Source: a virus
Taxonomy: Duplodnaviria; Heunggongvirae; Uroviricota; Caudoviricetes
Length of the DNA stretch: 15,995 bases
Virus record (IMG/VR): IMGVR_UViG_2531839661_000011
Reading direction: 5' to 3' (one strand)
Position numbers: made by a program. Positions within the stretch are counted from its first letter, which is position 1. Each line of letters opens with the position of its first letter. This document shows positions 3,001-6,000 of the stretch, piece by piece.

Positions 3001-6000
3001 CAGGCTATCACGAAAGCCGTGACGGACTCAAAGCACTGGGCGCAGAACGTCACCATTACATTAATCTGGCACGCGCAGAGAACCGTGTTACAGGTCTGGT
3101 GGCTGGAGAACGCAGCACAGCCAGCGAGCAACAGTTAGGCTTACTGATAGTCATGCAGAAAATCGAGCAGGCAGCATTTGACGAGGCGATACAGAGCGGC
3201 ATGACACCGACCGAAGCGGTGCGGGAGGTTGCCTGCCGCATGGAGACGTTCGCCAGCCTGATGACGTCAGCGCCGTCTCTGGGGGTGAATCATGCGTAAT
3301 TATGTTATCCCTCCCAATCATGAAGGCGGTTATATTTATGTGGCGCTTTCTGACATTGGATTAGTTAAGGTTGGAAAAACCAGAAATGTTTCAGCCAGAA
3401 TGAAACAGCTATCCACTGGTAGCGGCATAGTAATCACTAAAGTCGAGGTGTTAGGGCCATTTGTTAATTACGGACAAGTCGAATTAGCTATTCATGCAAA
3501 ACTTACATCAGAACGCCGTTCTGGTGAGTGGTTTTCTGCTGATTTTGATACGGTTAAAGCAATTGCTATCGATACATCAGGAATAGGTACTCCTGGTGCG
3601 GAATTAGTTAACAACGATGCTTATCGCTACGAACGCGTGTTTTTATGGTTTAGTGCGCATGAGGAACAAATTAAATACGAACAAGCACTTTGCGAAATAT
3701 TATCTGATACGGCAATTAACTTTCTTAAGGAGTATGGCACAGCTTGCGCCCCATATGTTGCTTTATGTATTCACACAATGGGGGGTGTAACTCTTCAACA
3801 GGGACAAAAGGCCTACTCTGTATATCCTTGTGGATTTAAAGAGTCCACATTGGATCAGTTAAGGGAGGATTGGAATAATTTTGCAGATAAAGATATTTTC
3901 GAAGACTCTGATTTTGATGATTTTCTTATAGACATAAGTGATAAAGATAAATTTAAGTCAGAAGCTGAGGAATGGAGAACTGATGCAATAAATAATCTTT
4001 TCACAGAACTCACCGATGATTACCAGCGCTGGCTGGCCCGTCGCATGGGAGAGCATGAACATGCCTGACATCCTCAAACCTGCTGTCCGGTACATCGACA
4101 CGGCGGATAAGTTCGCACTACTGAACATCAACCATGCTGATTACATGCGCCATATCGTGAGCCATTTCGCCGCTGAGCGCATGAAACACGTTAAGCATTA
4201 TCAGAAGGAGGCTTTATCAAATTATCGCACTGGTGGCCCTGTACGGCGCGAATATCCGCATGATGCAGGAATGGCAGGCAAAACAAAGGCGACCACGAAA
4301 GGGTCGCCAGTGGAGATAAAGGAAATCAAGCGCATCACCAACTATGCCATGAGTGTAGCTGGTGGACAATGCTATCAGCCAGGCGGTCGGTTTTTAGTGG
4401 CTTTTAACCGCCGTGGGTATTTCTCGACAAAATCTTCAAGGGCAAATTTTTTAGCTTTTGTATGTGATGCCTTTGACTCGTCATCACATGTTTTTCCGCG
4501 CCTTATCCTGTTTTCAATAAAACGGGAGGCGGCCTTTTTATTCAGCGATGAATCAATGGGGCTGCTCCCTGTTTGCTGCTCGACAATGGCATCCATGAGT
4601 AGTTGGTGTTGTAGTTGTCGTAAAAATTTCTCATCTTCTGGTGGTAAATCCATACTTATTTCCTGTACAGCGGAGCGACGCAGCACCTCACACCACGGCG
4701 CTGATGGTTGTTATTCGTTTTATGGAGTCAAAGAAGCAAAAGCGGATCGCTATCGGTTTTTAGGCGAGATTAATCGCCGTGGGTATTTGTCCAGAAATGC
4801 CTCAAGCGCAAATCGTTTTGGTCTGGTGAGAGGAGAGGGATTAAGCAAAGACTCACGTTCCAGGCGTACTTTTTCGCGCTGGCGCTCAAGTATGGATAAT
4901 GCGATTTCCTGTAATTCTTCATTTGTCATTGTCTGTACCCGTAAAGCGGTGCGCTGTAGTACCTCATATCACAGCGCAGGTATTTTTTATGGTTGTAATT
5001 TGCGTGATGATTCAGGTCGCTTTGCGACATACTGCATAAACATAAATAACGTGATGTTATTATGTGCTTTCAAAGAAAACGCAGGTATTTTTCGCACAAA
5101 CTTCTCTCGCAACACATCCGACCACTTAAGCAAAAAAGCGGCATATACTGAGGCTATCCCTTATAAAACGGGGATCGGGCGTAGGAACCCGTTTAACTGT
5201 GAGGCGACAAATGACGCCAGAAGCGTCTTTTTTTCTGCCAGCGATTTACGCCATATCAATGGTGTTGTGCATTGTGCGTACCCGTGCACCATCCAGTCAT
5301 TTCACGAGTTGCATTTTGCACAGCGCCACCAGCAAACAATGGTGATGCTGGCGGGGCTACCGAAAGGTAGGCCGGAGTCCTTACAGTCCGGTATTCCTAC
5401 CCCCGCCAGTGTCACCGCCCTGTGTGAGCGTAGGAACTCCAGCGGTGACGTTATTTATCACTGTAAGGAGGCTGCCACTATGGCTACTACCCCTACCCTG
5501 GTACATTCTCAAACCGCCTTCATCTGGCGCTTTATCACTGTTGGCACGTCAGAACGTCAAATCATCCACGTAACCGCCTGGACGGAACTCGAAGCGCGTA
5601 ACCGTTGCCCGTCAGGTTGCGTTGCTGTATTCGCCGCCCGTATCCGTCAGGAGGCATCACATGGATAAAAACATGTTGATCGCCTCTTCTTTCGGGCTGT
5701 ATGATGCCGGAGTCGCCCACATGGCGACCGGGTTTAGCAGCCTGAATAAATTGGCGGACAGCCGCCCATATCCGATAAGCGGTTTTTTTGTGTCCGTAAA
5801 CCTACCCATACCCGCATTATGGCGGGGCGTAACGGGGGAGCCTTTGCGCTCGCTGGTTTCCCAATTTGCCAGTCTGCTAACCCTGTTACGTCTCGCCACC
5901 ACGTTTAGCAGCGTAGTAGCGAGACTCCTTAACATTAAATTGGGAGCCTTTCACATGGCTGTATCCGCACGCCCTTACTTTGTCTGGCGCTTTATGCAGT

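Follow-up and report, generated by a model that had tools for sequence, protein, structure and literature searches.

Two C4-type antisense RNA cassettes in coupled reading frames of a satellite island: a probable immunity region homologous to that of P4

Silencing of early phage genes by RNA is a known kind of mechanism, described for c4 of phages P1 and P7, for CI, seqA, eta and kil of satellite phage P4 and, in passages of PMC10111431, through C4 and isrK matches in Gram-negative phage-inducible chromosomal islands (PICIs). According to these passages, the P4 transcript from the internal constitutive promoter is quickly terminated by CI-seqA interactions and processed to CI, Kil is made on read-through, full-length Eta is made only from the upstream late promoter, and translation of Eta prevents termination. 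They also state that the Rfam C4 and isrK models match several Gram-negative and helper-embedded PICIs inside Phage_ASH-type genes, and they propose immunity functions for the CI and seqA homologues in 'Bro-zone' genes of Gram-negative PICIs. IsrK has been equated with seqA, and C4 with CI (PMC3632133). Here we describe a pair of such RNA cassettes in a stretch of 15,995 bases (the window; IMG/VR record IMGVR_UViG_2531839661_000011), which is identical in sequence to E. coli O43 RM10042 (NZ_CP028122.1). The region is very probably an RNA-based immunity module, silencing the early operon of a PICI-like satellite island and homologous to the P4 immunity region. What was computed here comprises sequence homology, RNA folds, the co-variation of antisense elements with their targets, the orthogonality of the cassettes, open reading frames and coupled starts. 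Positions are those of the window, features lie on the plus strand unless stated otherwise, and the names a1, b1, c4, a2, b2 and icd are used as annotated in the phage P1 record.

Two cassettes with C4-type RNAs and their targets

The original prediction had drawn attention to a repeated motif, a hairpin and a terminator ahead of the replication operon, and every element it described was found in place. The motif CGTAGGAAC occurs exactly twice in the window, both times on the plus strand, in the loop of the 5' hairpin (5180-5188) and before a Shine-Dalgarno sequence (5429-5437); dinucleotide shuffles give 0.08 expected matches, and two copies were reached in 1 of 200 shuffles. The partly complementary TTCCTAC, put at about 5392, lies at 5394-5400. 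The intrinsic terminator, said to follow the hairpin and a single-stranded stretch about 250 bp before the first plus-strand small gene, ends at 5234, and the ATG of that gene (5480) lies 246 nt past its T-run. The core idea of a leader or small RNA in P4-like immunity or attenuation also stands, but the main regulator is predicted to be a C4/CI RNA at about 5341-5419 and not the RNA ending at 5234. The view that the sequences are unrelated to P4 does not hold: the P4 CI RNA (P4 8420-8507, minus strand) scores 74.9 bits with the C4 model, the P4 seqA leader scores 60.8 bits with isrK, and P4 8330-8740(-) aligns with window 5100-5500 from the leader through C4 and seqC into the beginning of the next open reading frame (ORF). 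The layout is of the P4 type, as proposed, but is more complex, with a second cassette of the P1/P7 type and with both cassettes inside eta/kil-type nested frames. The b1/b2 pair, the structured 79-nt RNA that bears TTCCTAC, cassette 2 and the enclosing long ORF had been missed.

Cassette 1 begins with a candidate -10 element, TATACT (5144-5149), read from the sequence as part of an internal promoter like PLE of P4. Transcription would start at about 5156, where the Rfam isrK model also begins. The IsrK/SeqA-like leader RNA 1 (5156-5234), delimited by Rfam isrK, the terminator scan and its fold, has the isrK architecture: hairpin 1 (5156-5175); hairpin 2 (5176-5191, CGGG[CGTAGGAA]CCCG; isrK alignment and fold) with the first CGTAGGAAC copy and thus target a1 GTAGGAA (5181-5187) in its loop; the single-stranded target b1 ACTGTGAGG (5196-5204); and an intrinsic terminator (GACGC-CAGAA-GCGTC at 5213-5227, then T7 at 5228-5234; terminator scan). 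Hairpin 1, a1 in the loop of hairpin 2, single-stranded b1 and the terminator are common to the leaders compared. In the proposed check by folding and by covariation among homologues, 5 of the 6 pairs of hairpin 1 are changed on both sides among 17 leaders, with the stem of hairpin 2 conserved. Judging by sequence, leader 1 is a homologue of the P4 seqA leader plus the t1 terminator.

Between the two CGTAGGAAC copies sits C4/CI-type antisense RNA 1 (5335-5422), which RF01695 scores at 69 bits (gathering score 45). Mature C4-1, if cut like the annotated c4 of P7 and P1, would span about 5341-5419 (~79 nt). Its minimum free energy (MFE) fold has -49.5 kcal/mol (z = -6.9 versus shuffles), with b' AGTCCTTACAGT in the loop of the second hairpin (5376-5387) and a' TTCCTAC at the 3' junction (5394-5400). 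The b' loop is complementary to b1 (with one G-U pair) and to b2 ACTGTAAGGA (5460-5469), which overlaps the Shine-Dalgarno sequence AAGGAGG (5465-5471) of icd1; together with a2 GTAGGAA (5430-5436), b2 makes up operator 1. The operator duplexes with C4-1 reach -9.3 (a2) and -14.6 kcal/mol (b2), compared with -3.7 to -5.8 kcal/mol with the elements of C4-2. Among the genes that follow the internal promoter, icd1 (5480-5668) is the first to be translated; it is a 62-aa Icd/Kil-like ORF (NCBIfam NF033153, 58.7 bits; cut-off 25) whose start region aligns with the corresponding P4 ORF.

Cassette 1 resembles P4 in the order of its elements, in the distance of ~100 nt from terminator to C4 and in an Icd/Kil-like first ORF. 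Identity with P4 amounts to 67% for the leader and 64% for C4, and it is 75% between a2 and the first icd1 codons; the promoter and the ~100-nt spacer are unconserved (45-47%). The specificity elements differ from those of P4 in a compensated manner: a1/a'/a2 read GTGAGAA/TTCTCAC/GTGAGAA in P4 and GTAGGAA/TTCCTAC/GTAGGAA in the window, and for the b element (TTCACAGG in P4, ACTGTAAGGA in cassette 1) the changes are compensated in leader, C4 and operator. Unlike the window, P4 lacks a second cassette (within P4 7800-9200).

Cassette 2 (5676-6125) is 80.7% identical to the P7 c4 region in promoter, leader, c4 and operator. Its promoter, TTGATC-18-TATGAT (5676-5705; promoter scan), aligns with P7 sequence identical to the annotated P1c4 (P51b) promoter of P1. 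Leader RNA 2 (5712-5789), of the P1/P7 type and ~80% identical to P7, carries a1 TTAGCAG (5734-5740), b1 AAATTGG (5748-5754), the hairpin GGCGG-ACAG-CCGCC (5753-5766) and a terminator stem CCGC...GCGG (5762-5782) with which that hairpin competes, followed by T7 (5783-5789). C4 antisense RNA 2 (5815-5903) scores 73.3 bits with RF01695 (gathering score 45). Alignment with the annotated P7 and P1 c4 places mature C4-2 at about 5821-5900, and its fold (MFE -44.7 kcal/mol; z = -5.6 versus shuffles) shows b' TTTCCCAATTTG as a loop (5857-5868) and a' CTGCTAA at 5874-5880. Operator 2 consists of a2 TTAGCAG (5905-5911) and b2 AAATTGGGA (5937-5945), the latter overlapping GGGA of the ribosome-binding site of icd2 (5955-6125), a 56-aa Icd-like ORF (NF033153, 53.7 bits; cut-off 25; P7 Icd 52.7). 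Cassette 2 is like P1/P7 immI in following the annotated P1 element order, in having an a element identical to that of P7 and in being followed by an Icd-like ORF. It differs from P7 in its new b element, AAATTGGGA. In the P1/P7 immI operon, which has promoters P51a/b, c4 is followed by icd and the antirepressor genes ant1/2 under C1 operator control. We found no ant gene downstream of cassette 2, and a search for a C1 operator gave none within 3 mismatches.

Co-variation was measured on 80 IMG/VR viral-contig loci fetched via the Icd-like protein, together with P1, P7 and D6; the P4 CI elements were taken from its Rfam alignment, and a scan of genome contigs with an Icd alignment gave 1 locus. 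A covariance model built from P1-like c4 only was too narrow and was rebuilt from its own matches. Most of loci L040-L083 have no C4 upstream of the Icd-like gene (our own models on all, Rfam on 13), and in the 10 of these loci that were read, the ~330 nt upstream hold a divergent gene and a strong TTGAC-type promoter. We read those 10 as repressor-controlled; these loci were of no use for co-variation.

Across 28 distinct sequences of the C4 family, 99.6% of cells are paired in the fold, and 14 pairs are changed on both sides; the observed value was reached in 0 of 500 shuffles, and slid controls were at most 52.5% paired. The C4 trait, a long closing stem around two hairpins, is present and is backed by compensatory changes. 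The specificity elements are varied (9 a' types, 18 b' types and 23 combinations) and follow one another closely. With a match of at least 7 nt as the measure, a' fits a2 in 23/23 cognate and 0/422 non-cognate comparisons, a' fits a1 in 23/23 and 9/422, and b' fits b2 in 22/23 and 14/496. In both window cassettes the cognate elements match over at least 7 nt at the a site as well as the b site, with b2 over the ribosome-binding site, and the two cassettes are orthogonal, with cognate duplexes at -8.4 to -14.6 and cross duplexes at -3.2 to -7.8 kcal/mol.

Nested and coupled reading frames

Both cassettes lie within longer ORFs. The icd1 frame is open for 496 codons upstream of ATG 5480, with 0 stops across cassette 1, and forms an eta-like long ORF of 535 codons (4061-5668) that spans the whole cassette. 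Its candidate ATG at 4061 overlaps the stop of the GIY-YIG gene (ATGCCTGA) and is preceded by the Shine-Dalgarno-like GGGAGAG (4047-4053). A second nested ORF of 154 codons (5661-6125), in the icd2 frame, runs through the whole of cassette 2; its ATG at 5661 overlaps the icd1 stop (ATGGATAA), with the Shine-Dalgarno sequence GGAGG at 5650-5654. The coupled ATGnnTAA start and the open frame of this second ORF are kept in 9/9 other cassette-2 loci examined.

This arrangement is like eta/kil of P4, where a kil-like ORF lies in frame at the end of a longer ORF begun upstream of the internal promoter. The long ORF of P4, with three consecutive Met codons, is in frame and open through the RNA cassette. 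These Met codons match a P4 ORF of 197-199 aa that Forti reportedly described in 1999. With 0 stops, the Icd frame runs through both cassettes of the window and through that of P4. The same was seen for 19 unique further cassette-1 sequences, taken from IMG/VR satellite-type loci, and for 11 further cassette-2 loci. Up to 10 stops occur in the two remaining frames. The equivalent frame of P1, P7 and D6 is broken by 2-3 stops, so that cassette 2 differs from P1/P7 immI in its open icd2 frame and the coupled ATG at its upstream end. In dinucleotide shuffles the probability of 0 stops is 0.011 for cassette 1 and 0.016 for cassette 2. The peptide encoded across C4-2 is wholly different between variants, through compensated frame shifts, and the frame is still open; hence, it is openness that is conserved and not a protein.

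Both RNA genes are unannotated in RefSeq. There, 4016-5668 is a 550-aa 'Icd-like protein' (WP_231318854.1; annotated by the Prokaryotic Genome Annotation Pipeline, PGAP) and the second ORF is a 'frameshifted' pseudogene (I3W_RS22835), and these two labels conceal the switch. The Pfam family Phage_ASH (68 bits) matches aa 377-498 of the 550-aa ORF, that is nt 5144-5509, the translation of leader plus C4. The Phage_ASH family is largely made up of translated versions of these RNA genes. We had considered the 550-aa ORF a pure annotation artefact and withdrew that idea, as the open frame is kept in all satellites and matches P4 eta.

Junctions of the ATGnnTRA type recur along the operon: between Rha and GIY-YIG (3292/3297; ATGCGTAA, 3292-3299), between GIY-YIG and the first long ORF (4061/4066; 4061-4068), between the first and second long ORFs (5661/5666; 5661-5668) and between icd2 and the next small ORF, whose ATG at 6118 overlaps the icd2 stop (6118/6123; ATGCTTAA, 6118-6125). 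This pattern suggests one translationally coupled chain that would start at Rha, take in both Icd-like ORFs and reach the replication genes.

Two minus-strand ORFs, 4375-4686 (103 aa) and 4750-4929 (59 aa), run antisense to the long plus frame and have a similar C-terminus (KKFALEDFVEKYPRRL and KRFALEAFLDKYPRRL). Neither gave a Pfam, PHROG or NCBIfam match, and tblastn against phage records returned nothing for the 103-aa ORF or for the N-terminal 110 aa of the long ORF. Ahead of the leader promoter, an AT-rich stretch holds an inverted repeat, GCGCTGT-N13-ACAGCGC (4951-4977), and a 13-nt direct repeat, CGCAGGTATTTTT, at 4975-4987 and 5080-5092, ~105 bp apart. These repeats (4951-5092) may be operator sites for some regulator; the long plus frame is free of stops even here.

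Proposed switch and competing explanations

In the switch that we propose, the internal promoter of cassette 1 would initiate a transcript at about 5156, and many transcripts would end at the terminator (5213-5234), giving an IsrK/SeqA-type leader of ~79 nt that bears a1 and b1. From read-through transcripts the C4/CI RNA would be excised as a stable RNA of ~79 nt, with its 5' end made by RNase P on the analogy of P1 and P4. The exposed b' loop and a' junction of C4-1 would bind b2 and a2 and cover the Shine-Dalgarno sequence of the Icd/Kil-like ORF; icd1 RNA, left untranslated, would be terminated, and the replication genes would therefore be off. C4-1 on a1 and b1 of nascent leaders would favour the stop at 5234, an autoregulation of C4 in the role of P4 t1. 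Cassette 2, of P1/P7 immI ancestry and with its own promoter and orthogonal specificity, would repeat the same lock before icd2. Transcripts started upstream would offer a bypass, since they would be translated in the long ORFs in frame with icd1 and icd2; these ORFs are joined by overlapping stop and start codons, and ribosomes would therefore cross both cassettes and block antisense pairing and termination, as with P4 eta.

Several points weigh against this account or limit it. The -35 element of cassette 1 is weak, and a consensus promoter scan did not report the promoter. Leader 1 (5156-5233) scores 49.6 bits with isrK (RF01394), 0.4 under the gathering score of 50, and c4-a1b1 (RF03163; gathering score 46.7) reaches 24.6 bits at 5143-5195; leader 2 likewise stays below both cuts, with 37.6 bits for isrK (5712-5789) and 32.4 bits for c4-a1b1 (5699-5748). 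When a1 and b1 are masked in silico, the MFE fold switches to the terminator in 5 of 13 leaders only (window leader 2, P7, D6 and two of the P4 type). P1 forms the terminator in both states, and in window leader 1 it forms with or without masking. Of the P4 terminators t1, t4 and timm, a t1-like sequence is the only one visible. The start codon of the first long ORF is uncertain, and over 4375-4929 a six-frame score finds codon usage slightly better for the minus-strand ORFs than for the plus frame. Lastly, homology is the source for the transcription starts (about 5156 and 5712), for termination at 5234, for the processing sites and for Rho dependence, and termination at 5789, repression of icd1 and icd2, autoregulation and bypass are modelled on P1, P4 and Gifsy-1.

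The free leaders of P7 (L002, 1487-1567), D6 (L085, 687-767) and the window (5712-5789) each have a small GCGG/CCGC-type hairpin that competes with the terminator, and masking both a1 and b1 of leader 2 switches its fold to the terminator. On this modelling, termination in the leaders of P7, D6 and window cassette 2 seems to be favoured by C4 binding. An anti-terminator considered for leader 1 (GGCG 5203-5206 with CGCC 5215-5218) was unsupported by MFE folds and is kept only as an idea.

We tentatively propose that the two cassettes are orthogonal locks in series, the P4-type lock first and the second captured from a P1/P7-like immI and made into a nested-ORF lock in the style of P4, although this history may well be wrong. 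The same tentative reading holds that the conversion consisted in the removal of in-frame stops and the coupling of a start codon to the icd1 stop. If true, each lock would produce its repressor RNA from an internal promoter of its own, and both would be opened, one after the other, by a single translated transcript from upstream. RNA cross-talk with P1/P7-type phages would then also be possible, because the second lock keeps the a site of P7 (elsewhere of P1).

An alternative is that leader 5156-5234 is mainly a trans-acting activator, as IsrK of Gifsy-1, and not primarily a cis target that promotes termination: a1 and b1 would bind a' and b', either in the read-through transcript or in free C4, and so free the ribosome-binding site and turn the operon on. 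Such a role is compatible with the termination described above. The IsrK/STnc1160/orf45-anrP region of Gifsy-1 is indeed similar, with a terminated leader, read-through with a processed RNA and a translationally controlled downstream gene, and there the short IsrK in trans lifts downstream translation >100-fold by pairing within the stable processed RNA STnc1160 (PMC4825925). The isrK match of leader 1 at 49.6 bits and the pairing of its a1 and b1 with C4-1 at -9.3 and -13.0 kcal/mol are in agreement with this idea. However, cassette 1 resembles P4 much more than it does the Rfam isrK consensus, and IsrK-like elements are required in P4-like prophages, which fits a repressive role (Barquist 2013, PMC3632133). 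The two systems have different outputs, an antirepressor and a Q antiterminator in Gifsy-1, where the short RNA was shown to activate (PMC4825925), and Icd-like ORFs and replication genes in the window. We consider activation as the main role of the leader rather doubtful. Briani in 2000 reportedly found that P4 seqA and CI enhance termination at t1 and are needed for immunity, and this also argues against an activator.

It is quite unlikely that cassette 2 serves cross-talk with P1/P7-type phages, as helper sensing or RNA-RNA interference, beyond being a second internal lock. It has the same a element, TTAGCAG, as P7, and related satellite loci combine the P7 or P1 a type with many b types. 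However, its b element over the ribosome-binding site is unlike those of P7, P1 and D6, pairing over seven bases at the a site would hardly be enough by itself, and the exact cassette 2 specificity occurs on 4 small (7-11 kb) IMG/VR contigs only and on no large phage contig. Searches of IMG/VR for the exact specificities found no phage partner with a matching one.

That the region merely encodes a protein, the Ash/Eta 'Bro-network' protein of PGAP and Pfam, with incidental hairpins and repeats, is barely credible: the 550-aa ORF does span the region, its translation does match Phage_ASH at 68 bits and its open frame is conserved, but base pairs co-vary in the RNA folds, co-variation links the a and b elements across three to four separate sites, the C4-2 peptide is wholly different between variants although the frame stays open, and promoters and an intrinsic terminator lie inside the ORF.

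Returning to the RNA-based immunity module, the silence of the island and its switch to replication would depend on an RNA repressor system and not on a protein repressor. The map of a1, b1, a', b', a2 and b2 for two orthogonal specificities is a ready basis for compensatory-mutation tests, and the 23 specificity variants found in nature amount to a catalogue of antisense/target pairs that are orthogonal to one another. The tandem chaining suggests how satellites stack immunity modules and how these could be overridden by one induced upstream transcript.

Distribution and island context

The heterotypic tandem, a P4-type cassette followed by one of the P1/P7 type, was found in 9 further IMG/VR loci and, by megablast, in 26 of 5,426 complete E. 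coli genomes. Cassette 1 is new in its specificity, for which IMG/VR held no exact match. The passages of PMC10111431 covered here do not describe specificity elements, their co-variation, the heterotypic tandem or a coupled second nested ORF. In a limited search of the accessible literature, we found no description of the heterotypic tandem or of a P7-like cassette turned into a coupled open frame. The tandem, translationally chained layout is a modest, incremental variant and no new class of mechanism.

The window starts with the integrase gene of the island, which is inserted between yicC and dinD. The island encodes the integrase, an AlpA-like helix-turn-helix protein, Rha, a GIY-YIG nuclease, the two Icd-like proteins, a D5-type primase (D5_N/Pox_D5/DUF5906, 607 aa), SSB, a ProQ/FinO protein, PerC-family regulators and a Q-like antiterminator. 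Its int, AlpA, Rha, primase and SSB genes are shared with the PICIs in the passages of PMC10111431. Unlike the P4 satellite, it has no sid, psu, delta or alpha-type primase in its RefSeq annotation. By gene content the island is a Gram-negative PICI-type satellite and not P4-like, and its likeness to P4 is limited to the immunity module.

Elsewhere in the island, a GC-rich hairpin (GACGGGCG...CGCCCGTC, 2520-2546) without a clear T-run lies between the AlpA-like gene and Rha; at the head of the coupled gene chain it may act as a regulated terminator or mark a site of processing. Directly past the primase gene, 8763-9004 holds ~14 copies of GGTGAACAG or CTGTTCACC in both orientations, with long imperfect inverted repeats; in Rfam this stretch gave only weak look-alike matches to miRNA precursors. 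The iteron-rich stretch is probably the replication origin of the island. The operon of the antisense cassettes also holds a ProQ/FinO-family gene (9951-10418). ProQ/FinO proteins are chaperones of structured antisense RNAs, and as a speculation the island protein may help C4 to pair with its targets.

Many related islands have a 72-77% identical Icd-like first gene, yet have no C4 upstream. Six other loci (L015, L023, L027, L030, L035 and L039) carry a P4-type cassette with a truncated Icd-like start (MVAVNHIPHLVHTQTAFVWRF) joined in frame to its front. Regulatory modules appear to be shuffled between islands.

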